Origin: Candidatus Aenigmatarchaeota archaeon
Lineage (GTDB): Archaea > Aenigmatarchaeota > Aenigmatarchaeia > Aenigmatarchaeales > JACQIB01
DNA: 64,000 nt
Reading direction: 5' to 3'
Assembly: GCA_043799675.1 (NCBI GenBank)
Contig: JAZDNN010000024.1
Location: forward strand, 32,412-96,411
The notes under the pieces were generated by a model. It did no database searches, was not told the origin of the DNA, and saw only the letters and a list, made by a program, of their open reading frames with translations. Each line of letters opens with the position of its first letter. Position 1 is the first letter of the stretch. Of this stretch, positions 29,169 to 64,000 are shown piece by piece. Both the position numbers and the translations under genes were made by a program.

Positions 29169-29442
29169 CTCGTCCGTGTTCCAATCCGACCTGACGGAAG
29201 GGTTTCGGTAGCCTCTCCACCGACATGACACCGCGGCTTCAATCTTCGGGAACCTACCAACTGAAACCGCTGAATTTAATGGCACAAGCATTCGGACGGC
29301 ATGAAATGCCATCGCACCATCTTGCGCTCTATGGAAAGGCGTATAGCGCGGGCCTTTGCCGGGAGAATGAAATACCCGCCCCCCGATTGGGAAGGAAAGA
29401 ACTCTGTCATGCAAAAATTGAGGGACGAAACGATTTATGCGC

Positions 29443-49331: not shown

Positions 49332-49646
49332 CATGCCCTCGGTCCAAATCCCTAACGTCAATCGACGAAAAAGGCGATGATACGTTCTTATGTTAAGTTT
49401 GTTCAGCTTCCGATTGCCGCCGGAGGCAAATCGGGTGATGCTGAAAACATCAGGCAATGCGTGCCACTAAAGCACATATCGGCCCGACAACCGTGACGGG
49501 ACTGGGCTGAAACATCTCCCCGAACGGCAACCGTGTCAGATAGAGCATCGCATCCTCAGGCCGGAATCCGAAAGCCCGGGTCGAGCACTTCGGTGTCAAA
49601 CAGGACTTATGGGTTAACGGCCTGTCCGAGCCCATTCGGCGGCATG
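49332..49646. ncRNA. Putative structured non-coding RNA (~315 nt), unclassified
   Basis: Termini CATGCC/GGCATG pair; several hairpins; crossing pairings ATGGG/CCCAT and ACAGG/CCTGT. Confidence 0.4.
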
Positions 49647-49648
49647 AT

Positions 49649-49867
49649 TCAATTCTTCAACTCATACCTGAGATTTTCCCACACCTGCTCTTCCATCGTG
49701 CGGTAGAACCGCGGGATGTCCGTATCCGGCAAGAGCCTCTCGTATATCCGGTACAGAGTGCAATCCACGGCCGTGGCGACCGAACAGTGGCCGCCGGAGC
49801 AGGTCCGCCCGTTCGGGCAGCCCTTCAGAACGTACTTGCACGGTTCAGCCAGCGTTTCCTCCGCCAT
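49649..49867 (-). CDS. Small Cys-rich hypothetical protein
   Basis: Five Cys in the N-terminal half; TATA-like element upstream. Confidence 0.5.
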   Translation of the reverse strand: MAEETLAEPCKYVLKGCPNGRTCSGGHCSVATAVDCTLYRIYERLLPDTDIPRFYRTMEEQVWENLRYELKN

Positions 49868-49926
49868 GGGACAATCGGACACGAAAAACTTAAATAGCCG
49901 TTGAATAATCACTCGCCAGAAATTAC

Positions 49927-49940
49927 AGAAAACTTATATG
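49927..49940 (+). promoter_or_regulatory. BRE/TATA promoter (AGAAAA-CTTATATG)
   Basis: Archaeal consensus about 25 nt upstream of the BHB-bounded RNA. Confidence 0.55.
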
Positions 49941-49970
49941 TGACTTTTGCGAGCGTTGTGTAAAGGACAA

Positions 49971-50176
49971 ATCGGTTGCCCTGGAAAGGGTGGGAGTACG
50001 GCAGCTTAGGTTCGATGTTCGGCCAGGTACGCGGCGACTGGACTACAACTCGCCGCTTGCGTCTGCATCGATCATGCTTGTTGGTAGCCCGTAGGAGATA
50101 ACCTGTCGAAAAACCCTACACACGGTAGATGAGGCCCGAACCGTACAAGGTACAGGCACTCTTGCACCGAGTCCAG
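49971..50176 (+). ncRNA. 206-nt BHB-bounded structured RNA (leader intron or circular ncRNA)
   Basis: GGAC-AA^A-UCGGU ... ACCGA-GUCC-AG^A; internal stems UCGAUG/CAUCGA, GCGGCGA/UCGCCGC, GUAGG/CCUAC, ACGGU/ACCGU. Confidence 0.65.
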
Positions 50177-50178
50177 AT

Positions 50179-50364
50179 ATGCCAAAGAAACGGAAAGTGA
50201 GGAAAGTCTCACGTAAGACAGTCAGGAAAGGACACAGGCAGCGCGGTCCCAGCGGCAAGAGCAAGGCTTCCAAGGTCAGGAAACTGATGAAGCTCGCCAA
50301 GAAGCCGAAGAAGGAGCCTGTCAGGAAGCAGAAGAAGACGAAGAAGAAGCATCACTGGTTCTGA
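50179..50364 (+). CDS. Very basic Lys/Arg-rich small protein
   Basis: 61 aa, roughly half K/R. Confidence 0.6.
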   Translation: MPKKRKVRKVSRKTVRKGHRQRGPSGKSKASKVRKLMKLAKKPKKEPVRKQKKTKKKHHWF

Positions 50365-50468
50365 GTTCCCAGGAAACGGACGTTTGACCCTTTACTGCCG
50401 GTGTTATCGGGCACATGGCTCAAGCTAAGGCATGAAAAGCTATAAGCGGGCTCCGGCCAACTCCTGTC

Positions 50469-51368
50469 ATGCGGAAGCTGGTTCTCATCGCCCTGACGAT
50501 CATGCTCGCCCTTGCAGGCTGGTATCTCTATGCCGGCATGCCCTTGGCCGATACGACCCCGACCTTGATAACCGGCAAGACCATCATTTCCAAAACTGGG
50601 AACTACGTCCTTGGCAGAGATATCTCGTGCACCGCTGCCGGCGAAATGGACACATGCATCGAAATCCGTGCAAACAATGCCGTGCTCGACTGCCAGGGCC
50701 ACAGCATGACCCTGAAAAACCGTAACATCCGGGCCCCGGCCAGCACAGGCATATTCATGGCAGGCGTGAGGGATGTGAGCATTAGGAACTGCAGGATTGA
50801 AAACTTTGACTTCGGCATATTCCTCAAGGGAAGTTACAACAACTTCACCAACAACACCATAAGCAACAACGGCATGGGCATCTACTACGACGACTATTCC
50901 TCCCACAACAATTTCGTGAACAACACAGTAAGCGACAATGACAACAGAGGCGTCTACCTGTTCATGCGCTCGTCCAACAACACGTTCACGGGCAACACCA
51001 TAAGGAACAACGGGATATACGGCATCATCATCACCTGCGCGGCGCACCACAACACCTTCTCCAACAACGTGATTGAAGGCAATGGATATGACAGCATAAG
51101 TGGCGATTCCGGCGGGGTCTATATCCTCAATTCATATGCCAACGTCTTTTCAAGCAACAGAATATGCAACAACTCTATAACCGTCAGATGCGAGTTCGAT
51201 CCAAGGATGGAAAGCACGACTGAAATGTGCTGGCTGCAAGAACTTCCGCACACGGTCCCGATTGATGCGAACGCGGAAAGAGCAGGCGCCCTGATTGACG
51301 GCGGAAGAAACGCGTGCCAGAACCCCGTGAGCTGCGACGGAACATTCATCAGCTGCAGCGCGTGTTAA
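50469..51368 (+). CDS. Secreted parallel beta-helix (NosD/pectin-lyase-like) protein
   Basis: LDCQGH; NNTISNN..GI repeats; signal peptide. Confidence 0.85.
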   Translation: MRKLVLIALTIMLALAGWYLYAGMPLADTTPTLITGKTIISKTGNYVLGRDISCTAAGEMDTCIEIRANNAVLDCQGHSMTLKNRNIRAPASTGIFMAGVRDVSIRNCRIENFDFGIFLKGSYNNFTNNTISNNGMGIYYDDYSSHNNFVNNTVSDNDNRGVYLFMRSSNNTFTGNTIRNNGIYGIIITCAAHHNTFSNNVIEGNGYDSISGDSGGVYILNSYANVFSSNRICNNSITVRCEFDPRMESTTEMCWLQELPHTVPIDANAERAGALIDGGRNACQNPVSCDGTFISCSAC

Positions 51369-51418
51369 TGGGCACGTCCTGAAAGAGCTATAAGCGGGCC
51401 ATCATCCAATATTATAAC

Positions 51419-52195
51419 GTGAAGCTCGCCCTGGGCAGGAAACGCGCGGTCATTGCCATTCTAATCGTGGCAGTACTTGGAGCGGTCGCCTATCAAAGCA
51501 TGCAGCCGGGGCAGGAGAACCCGGTGGTCACGCTTTGCGAGCAGCAGTTCAGGCAGGGTAATGCAGGAAACTATTCCGGATTTTTCGCCTGCATAACCGA
51601 ATCCGCAGTGGCCCAGCTCGACCCCGGAATATGCGGGACGCGGATGGACACATGGATGCAGTCCGACTGCATAAAGGCGGTGATTGCAGCGGCGCCCGAG
51701 GATCCGGCGGTCTATGAGAAGCTCCGGAACCCGTACCTGCGGGGAATGCTCCAATATCAAAAGGGCAACTTATCTTCCGATGAGTCCAATCCTGACTTCG
51801 GCATAGAGATATACTTTCTGGACATCGTCAGGAACGAGACGAACATCCCAATCAACACCTCGGAAAAGCACATGTTCATCTGCGAGGAAATCGACAACGT
51901 CTATCCGAGAAGCCAGTGCTACATGGCCATCGCATGGGCAACGAACAACACCTCAGTCTGCGAAAGGGTCCAGATTGATTCCTACAAGGACGGATGCTAC
52001 TGGAACATCGTAAATAAGATACCCGACCCGACGATTTGCGGGAATATCGTGGACATACTCACGCGGACCGACTGCTATTCCTATATCGCCTCAATGACAA
52101 AGGACGCTTCAATCTGCGAGAAAATTGAAATCCCTGAAAGAAAGAACATATGCTACCAGTCCGTATCGGAAATGAAGACAGGAGTCAAAACATGA
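51419..52195 (+). CDS. Membrane-anchored protein with Cys-rich repeats
   Basis: C-x2-I...CY..IA....D...C repeats. Confidence 0.75.
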   Translation: MKLALGRKRAVIAILIVAVLGAVAYQSMQPGQENPVVTLCEQQFRQGNAGNYSGFFACITESAVAQLDPGICGTRMDTWMQSDCIKAVIAAAPEDPAVYEKLRNPYLRGMLQYQKGNLSSDESNPDFGIEIYFLDIVRNETNIPINTSEKHMFICEEIDNVYPRSQCYMAIAWATNNTSVCERVQIDSYKDGCYWNIVNKIPDPTICGNIVDILTRTDCYSYIASMTKDASICEKIEIPERKNICYQSVSEMKTGVKT

Positions 52196-61859: not shown

Positions 61860-62364
61860 GACAATCCAACACAATGCGAGGATTTAAAACAGAGCTTCCG
61901 CTCGCTTGCGGAATGGGAAAGAAAAATATTGAGATCAGCAGAGGAGAGCAAAACTTCAGCGCAGCCATGCACGCTTGCACGGCATGCGATTGAGGGGGTC
62001 CGGCTACCAAAATTGGCACAGCCAGCACTCACGCTAACAAGGCGAGCTTGCGCTCGCCAAGCTAGATGAGAGGCTGACCGCCAAAACCATTTGGCAGTTA
62101 GTGGACGCGGACTGAACACGTCGCCGAAGCTTCGTGCGTACATCCCGTCCCTATCAAGGAAGTCGTCTAGCTTCCAGCCAATGCCTATTTTTCCCGGCCG
62201 TTTCGCGCTTAGATGCCTTCAGCGCTTAAGGGCGATCGCGTGGCTGCCCGGCGTTGCCTTTCGACAACCGGTAAACCAGAGGCGACCGAGCGGCGTTCCT
62301 TTCGTACTTGCCGCTCGTTCGGGTCAGGCAATAGCACCCTCGGTAGATATAAACCGTACTGTCT

Positions 62365-63006
62365 ATGTCGTCCAACGTAGATCGTTTATGATACTTTCGT
62401 ATCATTGTATTGGACTTTTTCTCGGTGGGTCGAAAAAGAGTGTAGATCAATATAGACAGGAGTCTCTTTCATCTCTACATCTTTTCAAAAATTTTGCGTA
62501 TCCCGGAATCGTTGGCTCACTAGCTACTCCATTTCGCACATTCATAGCATTGGCTTGCGCCAGGCCATGTTGGGAGTGCATTGGGGCGGTGCGTTCATTG
62601 CCGCCAGGATACTTTACCGTGACTGGTATACCGTTTTCATAGCAGCGGTTATCAAACTCTGGAGTTCGAACATCACCGCACGGCCGCTCAAACTATCGAC
62701 ATTGATATTTCATAGCAGCCCGAGCTAACGCTCATGCTCAACGGTTCTTCTCGTCACGGAGCGGCAGCTCGCTTTGGTAAGCAAAGCTGCCAATTCGCAA
62801 GTCGATTGTGACTTCGGTCAAATCATCGCAACAGGCAAAGAAGACCTTCCGGTCTTCAGAGCTTTTGCTCGCTTGACTTCAGATTCTCTCATCCTTGCAA
62901 GACCCACCTATTTTCCGCGCGATAACACGCGCAAGGCTAGATGCACTAGCATTTGGTTGCCCTGCGCTGTCATCACAACAGATCCAATACTGATCCACAG
63001 TCAGAT
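62365..63006 (-). other. 23S BHB intron (~E. coli 2597), 642 nt, no long ORF
   Basis: GUCG-UG^A-UCUGAC ... GUUGGA-CGAC-AU^A; splicing restores GUCGUGAGACAG. Confidence 0.88.
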
Positions 63007-63027
63007 CACGACGTACTGAACCCAGCT

Positions 63028-63120
63028 CTGACGAGAAGCCAAGAGTTGGATATAGATAATTCTGTCTACCAATCTCAAAATTGGAAGAATTACCCAAACC
63101 CGCATTCTCCTGCACTCCCT
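63028..63120 (-). other. 23S BHB intron (~E. coli 2576), about 93 nt
   Basis: GACG-UU^A-GGGAGU ... GCUUCU-CGUC-AG^A; boundary uncertain by 1 nt. Confidence 0.8.
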
Positions 63121-63246
63121 AACGTCCCCCTTTAATCAGTGAACACCTGCACCCTTGGCTGCTACTGCACAGCCAGGAGGGGGGAGCCGACAGCGAGGTA
63201 GCAACGCGCGGGGTCGATAGGAGCTCTCGCCCGCCACGACTCTGTT

Positions 63247-63888
63247 ATGAGGTGGCTAGCATAGAGAAGCGGTCTTCAACTTTTCTAAAAGCAATATTTG
63301 TTTTTCAGGGTGATGAAACCCGAACTTCTGCCGAAACTTTTTCAGATTCTGTATTCCATAGATGTGGAGAACCCATATCCCGCGCTTGTCTTGCAACAAG
63401 TGAACGGGTTTTATTCCGGCACGTTCCAAAACAGTTTTGGTGACATGAAGCAGTTCATGCTTCTTGTTGTATGCACGCAAGCTATAGCGTCGCTTTGAAA
63501 CGCTTCCTTCGGCGTCGAACAGACCCTGAACGAATCCTTTTTGAAATGAAGCCGGCATTGACAGAACTCTGCCAAAATCCTTTCTCATCTCAATGAGTTC
63601 GTTGTAAAGGTCCTTCGAATAAACCACAAGCCTGTAGTATTTTCTGCTCTTCCTTTGTCTGATACTGGACTTGAGGTGAAAACCCTGTTGAAGGGCTTTC
63701 CTTACTTCAAGCAGCCAGCGCCGATCCAACTGTTCTATTTCCAGGATGTATTCAAACTTCTTTTCCTTGAAGTAGACGGTCCCGTCCTCGGCCGCGCCGA
63801 AGACGAATCCGCGCTCGCGCTGCATGCAATAACATTGCCGAAGGTACAAATAAAGTTGAAGACCCAATTTTGTCTCTACGCTAGCCAT
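63247..63888 (-). mobile_element. 23S BHB intron (~E. coli 2449), 642 nt, encoding a homing endonuclease
   Basis: GGGG-AU^A-UGGCUAGCGUAGAGA ... UCUCUAUGCUAGCCA-CCUC-AU^A; splicing restores GGGGAUAACAG. Confidence 0.92.
63256..63888 (-). CDS. Intron-encoded LAGLIDADG homing endonuclease
   Basis: GFVFGAAEDG and GFVQGLFDAEGS; FGFHHPEK. Confidence 0.9.
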   Translation of the reverse strand: MASVETKLGLQLYLYLRQCYCMQRERGFVFGAAEDGTVYFKEKKFEYILEIEQLDRRWLLEVRKALQQGFHLKSSIRQRKSRKYYRLVVYSKDLYNELIEMRKDFGRVLSMPASFQKGFVQGLFDAEGSVSKRRYSLRAYNKKHELLHVTKTVLERAGIKPVHLLQDKRGIWVLHIYGIQNLKKFRQKFGFHHPEKQILLLEKLKTASLC

Positions 63889-64000
63889 ATCCCCGGGGTA
63901 GCTTTTCTGAAGTCACCGACGGCCATCAGTGCCCAGCTCGGTGTATCGCTATGCCCGACTTTCGTCTCTCAATCCTTTGCTTTGCGGGATCGAGTCAGGC

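Follow-up and report, generated by a model that had tools for sequence, protein, structure and literature searches.

In archaea, splicing at bulge-helix-bulge (BHB) motifs has been described in tRNAs, in rRNAs and in a small number of reading frames. Can it also release a structured non-coding RNA from the leader of a messenger RNA? This question is raised by a locus of Candidatus Aenigmatarchaeota archaeon (genome G000), which lies in a 64,000-nt stretch of contig JAZDNN010000024.1 that was analysed as a whole and is called here the window; coordinates are those of the window and refer to the + strand unless stated otherwise. At this locus a sequence-only reading had pointed to a 206-nt structured RNA, bounded by a BHB and placed directly before the gene of a small basic protein, and had suggested that its excision would yield a circle. 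We found that contigs from three RNA sequencing runs contain the circle junction, and that the RNA belongs to a conserved family of ultra-small (DPANN) archaea, which has no entry in Rfam 15. Its biogenesis very probably relies on EndA and RtcB acting on an mRNA leader, making it a conserved structured non-coding RNA released by BHB splicing from the leader of its apparent partner's gene.

The BHB and the circle junction

According to the description in PMC5829648, a BHB consists of a 4-bp helix between two 3-nt bulges on opposite strands at the intron–exon boundaries, and the motif occurs in archaeal pre-mRNA. In G000, this core is formed by a GGAC/GUCC helix (helix H) and by the bulges AAA and AGA (Table 1). 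GGAC begins 25 nt past a TATA-like box, and the usual archaeal spacing from that box would place the transcription start at about 49960-49965. The predicted cuts, after the second base of each bulge, delimit an intron of 206 nt and give the exon join GGACAA–AUAUG, so that an AAGGA comes to lie 5 nt 5' of the AUG. The BHB, the TATA-like box, the enclosed RNA, the AUG 2 nt past the 3' cut, the AAGGA spacing after splicing and the 61-aa open reading frame (ORF), of which about half of the residues are Lys or Arg, had all been part of the sequence-only reading, and each was confirmed in the sequence. The inner helix P1 measures 5 bp and is nearly invariant across the family. As for the processing enzymes, G000 has two PF01974 (tRNA_int_endo) matches for EndA on contig C10 (84.5 and 56.6 bits) and encodes RtcB (PF01139, 524.5 bits, in two pieces).

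A search for sequencing runs listed 21, all with small shares of this genome. Four of them were compared over positions 49500-51500, namely the DNA run X1 and the RNA runs X2, X7 and X10, the latter three each from a different study. Contigs of all three RNA runs contain the junction that the sequence-only reading had predicted, at the BHB cuts to within a slide of 2 bases: the sequence passes from 50176 to 49971, going back 206 letters, and reads GAGTCCAG followed directly by ATCGGTTG. The shorter side of the junction counts 23 letters in X2, 44 in X10 and 86 in X7, where the contig carries 86 letters on either side. In addition, an X2 contig that ends at 49971 shows 12 loose letters identical to the 3' end of the circle. 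The contig of the DNA run X1 is linear across 49908-50364, through both cut sites. Word depth, a rough and poor measure of abundance, was 6400 and 7607 for the two deepest listed circle contigs of X2, and 70 for the only other contig from the 2-kb stretch.

Two further contigs of X2 are reported here as observations in their own right. Specifically, the contig of record 11, in which 50050-50176 is joined to 49971-50029, reads T for every C among the 31 junction letters and differs in 14 other places; this copy of the circle has undergone C-to-U conversion, for which editing, chemical deamination or a library effect are possible causes. A second joint, which skips 98 bases inside the circle (50055 to 50154), was observed in one contig (depth 35.8, shorter side 25 letters) and is possibly an artefact.

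Table 1. Elements of the locus, in the order of their positions in the window
Element	Position	Strand	Evidence or remark
TATA-like box TTATAT	49934-49939	+	sequence
GGAC, 5' strand of the 4-bp central BHB helix H, within exon 1	49965-49968	+	pairs with GUCC 50171-50174
5' three-base bulge AAA, cut after 49970	49969-49971	+	circle junction in X2, X7 and X10 contigs
Excised 206-nt RNA, seen as a circle	49971-50176	+	junction in 3 RNA runs; covariance models R1 and R2 match (243 and 160 bits)
UCGGU, 5' strand of P1, the closing stem and BHB helix h'	49972-49976	+	pairs with 50166-50170
P2 hairpin with GGAA (GNRA-type) tetraloop	49978-49991	+	helix 3: 99.4% of cells paired, 3/5 pairs change on both sides
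P5 hairpin; loop CUGGAC (50038-50043), then UACAAC, the most conserved stretch	50031-50056	+	helix 9
3' domain, long irregular hairpin (GUAGGAG/CUCUUGC, CCUG/CAGG)	50091-50165	+	Alifold on 40 relatives
ACCGA, 3' strand of P1	50166-50170	+	helix 2 of the covariation scoring
GUCCAG	50171-50176	+	bases 1-4: 3' strand of helix H (precursor); all six pair with the P5 loop (excised RNA)
3' three-base bulge AGA, cut after 50176	50175-50177	+	circle junction
61-aa Lys/Arg-rich ORF, core ..GPSGKSKASKVRKLMKLAKK..	50179-50364	+	AUG at 50179; a single U between the 3' bulge and the AUG

An RNA family, its fold and its kissing pair

An exact scan of genome contigs with a 16-mer from a conserved loop identified one true relative among 60 stretches. 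This sequence, L064, comes from a metagenome-assembled genome (MAG) labelled Nanoarchaeota and is 79% identical to the G000 RNA, with the same BHB, an intron of 206 nt and a similar basic ORF. The covariance model R1, built from these two sequences, matched 7 of the 151 genomes in the class of G000. A degenerate motif scan of metagenome contigs returned 120 stretches, 80 of them with DNA, and R1 matched 60 of these 80, leaving 20 without a match; 69 matches were obtained in the collected loci. Matches of the improved model R2, added later, brought the family to 81 distinct RNAs from DPANN genomes and metagenomes, and the RNA is present in several freshwater and groundwater metatranscriptomes. 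With at least 81 distinct members and no Rfam 15 entry, the family marks a considerable gap in how DPANN genomes are annotated. A BLAST-type DNA search of 61 genomes returned only low-complexity pieces of the ORF and one 44-nt match (E 0.009).

The multi-stem fold supposed by the sequence-only reading is retained across homologs, with abundant compensatory change. In the 69-row alignment, which was fitted to the structure of the model, 94.2% of the cells are paired, compared with 36-52% when the partners are slid; 33 of 45 pairs vary on both sides, and none of 500 shuffles reaches the observed values. Helices 10 and 11 of the 3' domain are paired in 95.7% and 97.8% of the cells and together vary on both sides in six of their seven pairs. 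P1 has four pairs that are the same in all 64 scored rows, and a fifth in which just one side varies. Variation within the metatranscriptomes follows the same pattern, as a second variant in X7 carries two compensatory changes, U-A to C-G at 50012/50071 and A-U to G-C at 50015/50068. The strain variant found in X1 has 1 difference over the 206 positions of the RNA, 3 in the 63-nt leader and 6 over the 186 of the ORF, where two changes are synonymous and the other four alter three codons (K>R, V>A and K>Q). Furthermore, the loop sequences of the RNA are more strongly conserved than the ORF. Thermodynamics by itself would not single out this RNA: its minimum free energy is unremarkable (z = -0.60, 49 of 200 shuffles folding equally well), as is that of the circular fold (z = -0.51).

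The family shares a long-range pairing as well. The six bases that precede UAUAAC in the P5 loop (CUGGAC in G000) are complementary to the six that follow ACCGA (GUCCAG, 50171-50176). This kissing pair forms at least five of its six base pairs in 65 of 65 rows, through 17 distinct covarying combinations of loop and tail, among them CUGAAC/GUUCAG, CUAGAC/GUCUAG, AUGGAC/GUCCAU, AAGGGC/GCCCUU and ACGGAC/GUCCGU. Because GUCC is common to helix H and to the kissing pair, only one of the two pairings can form at a time. In the circle, GUCCAG together with one further base makes up a 7-nt loop that closes P1. Even L258, the weakest match to the model (17 bits), retains a kissing pair (CUGAGC/GCUCAG) and a helix H (GAGC/GCUC), and is therefore a genuine, very divergent member. 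This locus (L258 1-1168, G017:C5) has a 16S rRNA gene as a neighbour, about 330 nt away and on the other strand, and the two are transcribed divergently.

To describe the BHB across relatives, the motif was scored column by column in the 76 distinct RNAs with both flanks. A full BHB in register, with all four pairs of helix H, was found in 50 of them, the combinations being GGAC/GUCC (32), GGAU/GUCC (11), GGGC/GUCC (3), GGAC/GUCU (2), GGAC/GUUC (1) and GAGC/GCUC (1). Among these 50 members the outer helix, often AGCUGACA paired with UGUCAGCU, extends over 3 or more bp in 28, 5 or more in 19 and 7 or more in 15; the 3' bulge starts with AG in 43; and the predicted circles measure 186-243 nt, most commonly 203. 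In conclusion, the junction observed in every RNA run compared, the BHB register and the covarying fold place a BHB-cut, circle-forming RNA far beyond chance.

A TATA-like box is present in 73 of the 79 distinct upstream regions of relatives. In 24 of the 79 there is also an AAAGTRGT-like element, mostly about 8-10 nt before the TATA box, compared with 2 in control stretches; it occurs in members with and without the BHB (for example L175, L162, L156 and L137) and may be a factor-binding site of a strong promoter. Splicing-controlled translation, which the sequence-only reading had offered as one option, fits G000, where exon 1 holds the only Shine-Dalgarno (SD)-like stretch, AAGGA, and exon 2 the AUG, but it does not hold in general, since in most relatives the SD-like stretch lies 3' of the intron.

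The basic protein and the role of the RNA

The downstream protein was assessed in the 72 loci, out of 81 distinct RNAs, with at least 200 nt of downstream DNA, counting ORFs of 30-95 aa with at least 33% Lys+Arg and a start within 140 nt. A basic ORF follows the RNA in 62 of the 72, with an SKVxKL-type motif in 56, a Cys-rich sequence in 4 and another basic sequence in 2; the remaining 10 loci have no basic ORF behind the RNA. An alignment of 47 distinct proteins (A5) gives the consensus MAKKK..GRxPSxKSKxSKVKKLIKLAK... A single-sequence protein search with the 61-aa ORF returned no match, a Pfam scan of the 47 proteins at E up to 1 gave only scattered single matches and no family, the profile had no match in the PDB at E up to 10, and an Atlas search for the protein yielded no useful lead. 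Sixty database clusters of the protein are all unnamed or called 'hypothetical protein', and the named sources are Nanoarchaeota and Woesearchaeota MAGs.

Protein and RNA occur together, the protein having been detected only where a genome also carries the RNA. Among 61 genomes the protein profile matches G000, G009 and G023, which are the three with a strong RNA match, plus G045 weakly. Subtypes are matched as well, as the four divergent RNAs L107, L108, L242 and L243 are accompanied, at all four loci, by a different, Cys-rich basic ORF. No linkage exists in G252, whose RNA gene is solitary and flanked by a 9-bp clamp helix and a T-run; the protein gene of this genome occupies a different contig and has its own TATA box. 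This stand-alone gene indicates that the RNA is a product in its own right. The synteny in most loci and the co-occurrence across genomes support the cognate peptide suggested by the sequence-only reading, for which RNA binding is a prediction. Conservation, co-occurrence, the matching of subtypes and the unlinked genes of G252, taken together, suggest that the circle may be a functional product working with the basic protein.

R2 matched 8 of 151 genomes in the phylum sample of G000 and 13 of 151 in the class of the genome that holds L064. Of 39 close relatives, 3 gave a strong match and 1 a weak match, and the 6 other genomes of the same family gave none. All of these counts are minimum values. 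No conserved gene neighbourhood was found around the loci; the neighbours vary and are mostly housekeeping and translation genes, often with tRNA genes nearby. In G009, a tandem duplicate of the promoter, the RNA and the first 27 nt of the ORF is found at G009:C1:93357-93904 (L105 1501-1715 and 1834-2048), and only the second copy retains the full ORF. The two copies are separated by 118 nt, comprising promoter and ORF start, and are not head-to-tail; the genes of archease, RtcB and L31e lie just upstream.

From these data we propose the following sequence of events. One promoter would drive a short transcript made of a 5' exon of about 8-20 nt, the structured RNA of about 200 nt and the mRNA of the small Lys/Arg-rich protein. 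In this precursor, the GGAC of the 5' exon would pair with the GUCC just behind the closing stem, forming the BHB; EndA would cut after the second base of each bulge and RtcB would seal both products, the 206-nt circle and a short-leadered mRNA, which in G000 would carry its AAGGA 5 nt before the AUG. Within the circle, the freed GUCCAG would form the loop closing P1 and kiss the CUGGAC of P5, locking a compact three-armed fold, and this kissing pair and the BHB helix would be mutually exclusive, as they use the same bases. The stable circle would be the functional product, most likely in a particle with the co-encoded basic protein or as a buffer of it.

We consider the proposal as a whole, namely that the circle released by the BHB is the functional product and acts with or buffers the co-encoded basic protein, to be probable, if well short of assured. 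A further step, which would see here a new archaeal ribonucleoprotein, composed of a viroid-sized, DNA-encoded circular RNA and a dedicated basic protein, with maturation gated by competition between BHB and kissing loop, is advanced only tentatively. If true, DPANN archaea would have a new class of stable cellular RNA, and an mRNA leader would, for the first time, be seen to use BHB splicing as a conformational switch.

Several observations weigh against the proposed sequence of events. The junction evidence consists of assembled contigs rather than raw reads, and hence comes without read counts; the junction is defined only to within 2 bases, since both cuts are followed by AU; and the exon–exon junction was not observed, being neither seen nor excluded because no contig of X2, X7 or X10 covers the ORF or the exon join. 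The outer BHB helix of G000 is almost absent, with one contiguous pair only, and the motif is therefore of the relaxed HBh' form. In 26 of the 76 RNAs there is no BHB, the 5' GGAC being absent, and a few of these retain only a clamp helix. Many of the members without a BHB have a TATA box about 23 nt 5' of UCGGUU, so that their RNA would begin at the transcription start; circularity by the BHB route is therefore not universal, and it may be dispensable for function. Moreover, the patchy distribution of the module is odd for a core particle, the basic protein is of low complexity, and no target, ligand or catalytic motif was found in the Rfam scans or in the antisense search of G000, where potential targets of the circle were limited to 12-13-mers at E of 2 or more.

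Alternative explanations and known RNAs

The main rival of the functional circle is a reading in which the RNA serves chiefly in cis, as the leader of the mRNA for the basic protein, either for autoregulation of the ribosomal-protein-leader type or as a splicing switch, and the circle is a long-lived by-product. The protein would bind the leader, stabilise the kissing pair and hide GUCC, thereby blocking the BHB and the maturation of its own mRNA. Such a leader would account for the location of the RNA 5' of the protein gene in 62 of the 72 loci, for the four bases shared by kissing pair and helix H, for the union of SD-like AAGGA and AUG by splicing alone in G000, and for the 26 members without a BHB, which would remain attached to the mRNA. 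It is harder to reconcile with G252, whose RNA gene lies apart from the protein gene and has a T-run at its end, with the 10 loci that lack a basic ORF after the RNA, with RNA loops that are more conserved than the ORF, and with the depth of the X2 circle contigs (6400 and 7607, by a rough measure); we regard it as rather unlikely. Improbable, to a clearly greater degree, is a selfish or addiction module in which stable RNA, present in excess, would keep a harmful nucleic-acid-binding peptide in check. It would loosely resemble type III toxin-antitoxin systems, whose RNA lies upstream of the protein gene and is a tandem-repeat antitoxin processed by an endoribonuclease toxin. The order of RNA and protein gene is the same here, the promoter–RNA–ORF cassette is self-contained and found in varied neighbourhoods, G009 has a tandem duplicate, and a patchy, transfer-like distribution, such as that seen in the 39 close relatives (3 matches strong, 1 weak) and in the 6 other genomes of the family (none), would be explained. 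However, no repeat array is visible in the alignment, there is no nuclease-like toxin, the ORF encodes a basic peptide of 40-75 aa without a Pfam match, the neighbours are housekeeping and translation genes rather than genes of mobile elements, and toxicity of the peptide is purely hypothetical. In addition, divergent members such as L258 (17 bits) are at the limit of detection, and the patchiness is therefore partly an effect of sensitivity.

That a known housekeeping RNA, in divergent or permuted form, was missed by Rfam is highly improbable for any of the candidates, namely signal recognition particle (SRP) RNA, RNase P RNA and C/D or H/ACA guides. Rfam models and family-built profiles detected no SRP RNA and no RNase P RNA in the assembly of G000, which measures 0.75 Mb and is 83% complete, and we therefore tested whether the RNA is one of them; a precedent is the permuted SRP RNA of Thermoproteus, reportedly made functional by BHB-dependent circularisation. 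The models of SRP RNA (RF01857) and RNase P RNA (RF00373) gave no match at the locus at E up to 10, and nhmmer profiles built from the family's own copies reached at best E 0.4 (SRP) and 7.9 (RNase P) in G000, with no match at the locus. Canonical copies are present elsewhere in the relatives: each of the two RNAs was found in 50 of 61 genomes (60 relatives and G000), including, within the same family, 6 of 6 genomes for SRP RNA and 5 of 6 for RNase P RNA. G009 and G023 hold SRP RNA besides the new RNA, and G023 also holds RNase P RNA, none being found in G009. A divergent or permuted SRP or RNase P RNA was rejected on these grounds, in agreement with the sequence-only reading, which had seen neither SRP helix 8 nor the P4 motif of RNase P. 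As G000 is 83% complete, its SRP and RNase P RNAs may simply be unassembled; alternatively, they may be heavily interrupted by introns. Least credible of all is an artefact, arising either from a related strain with head-to-tail repeats in its DNA or from short RNA reads that were wrongly assembled. All junction evidence does come from assembled contigs, and G009 does carry two tandem copies, but these are 118 nt apart, the RNA is single-copy in G000, the DNA contig of X1 is linear, and the same junction appears in three runs of three studies, exactly at the predicted BHB cuts.

The scans against Rfam (15) point in the same direction. At gathering scores, the whole window contains only a 23S fragment and RT-16, with nothing on the RNA; at E up to 10, the region 49700-50500 gave two chance-level matches, both within the ORF; and at E up to 0.1, the loci of 20 relatives gave only neighbouring tRNAs and one 16S rRNA. 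The RNAs of G000 and of the 20 relatives, 21 members in all, thus have no Rfam match, even locally, with C/D-box, H/ACA, riboswitch and ribozyme families included, as would be expected of the unrecognised RNA imagined by the sequence-only reading. The stretch 50083-50107 looks like 16S helix 45, and relatives have GAUCACCU-like stretches, but covariation assigns these bases to other helices, and both similarities were therefore put down to chance. A full-text literature search, not covering supplements, found no description of the RNA. The archaeal circular RNAs named in PMC12558985 comprise rRNA intermediates, tRNA introns, C/D-box RNAs, SRP, RNase P, 5S and omega RNAs, and the RNA described here belongs to none of the classes given there.

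Relation to known systems and other features of the window

The closest parallels are the circular BHB introns of archaeal tRNA and rRNA genes, with which the new RNA shares excision at a BHB and sealing into a circle, and whose excised RNA can be a functional product. The tRNA-Trp intron, for instance, has a C/D-box guide role in Haloferax. In PMC12558985 the tRNA-Trp intron was detected in circular form in all archaea that were reanalysed. In contrast to these introns, the host of the new RNA is the 5' leader of an mRNA, and the RNA itself is a multi-helix fold of about 200 nt without C/D boxes or Rfam family, with a kissing pair that competes with the BHB and a dedicated protein gene. A BHB intron is also carried by the cbf5 pre-mRNA of Crenarchaeota, where, as here, tRNA-splicing enzymes act on a protein-coding transcript; introns of the cbf5 type are short, interrupt the reading frame and have no conserved internal fold, whereas here the intron lies in the untranslated leader and is the conserved part. 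The Thermoproteus SRP RNA, like the new RNA, is structured and non-coding and matures into a circle by way of a BHB, but the new RNA is not SRP RNA, is not permuted and is located in the leader of a protein gene.

Outside the archaea, stable non-coding RNAs are likewise freed from introns of host transcripts, as in eukaryotic intronic small nucleolar RNAs (snoRNAs) and tRNA intronic circular RNAs (tricRNAs). The metazoan tricRNAs, as presented in PMC4536317, are stable circular RNAs made from an intron by a homologous endonuclease and ligase. The new RNA differs in being archaeal, in having a host gene whose product is apparently the RNA's own partner, and in showing no evident guide function. 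Structured 5' leaders are also found before genes of small basic nucleic-acid-binding proteins in the autoregulatory ribosomal-protein leaders and in the L7Ae k-turn leaders. The arrangement is alike, in that a conserved structured leader precedes the gene of a small basic protein; the leader described here, by contrast, is excised, persists as a circle and can be encoded apart from the protein gene, as in G252.

The mutually exclusive pairings of BHB and kissing loop offer a concrete model for regulated archaeal splicing. Engineered expression systems for circular RNA already borrow archaeal BHB motifs, and the combination of clamp helix, BHB and compact circle is a natural scaffold of relevance to them.

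Finally, some features of the window lie outside the RNA gene. A 73-aa Cys-rich ORF on the minus strand (49649-49870) is oriented divergently to the RNA gene; it has no relative in 60 related genomes, being confined to G000 (1 of 61), and no Pfam match. ARAGORN found no tRNA gene in the 64 kb. The 3' part of a 23S rRNA gene (62079-64000, minus strand) contains two long insertions relative to the Rfam model, of 655 and 752 nt, presumably rRNA introns, and the RT-16 RNA match maps to 29203-29379 on the minus strand, with 57.2 bits.

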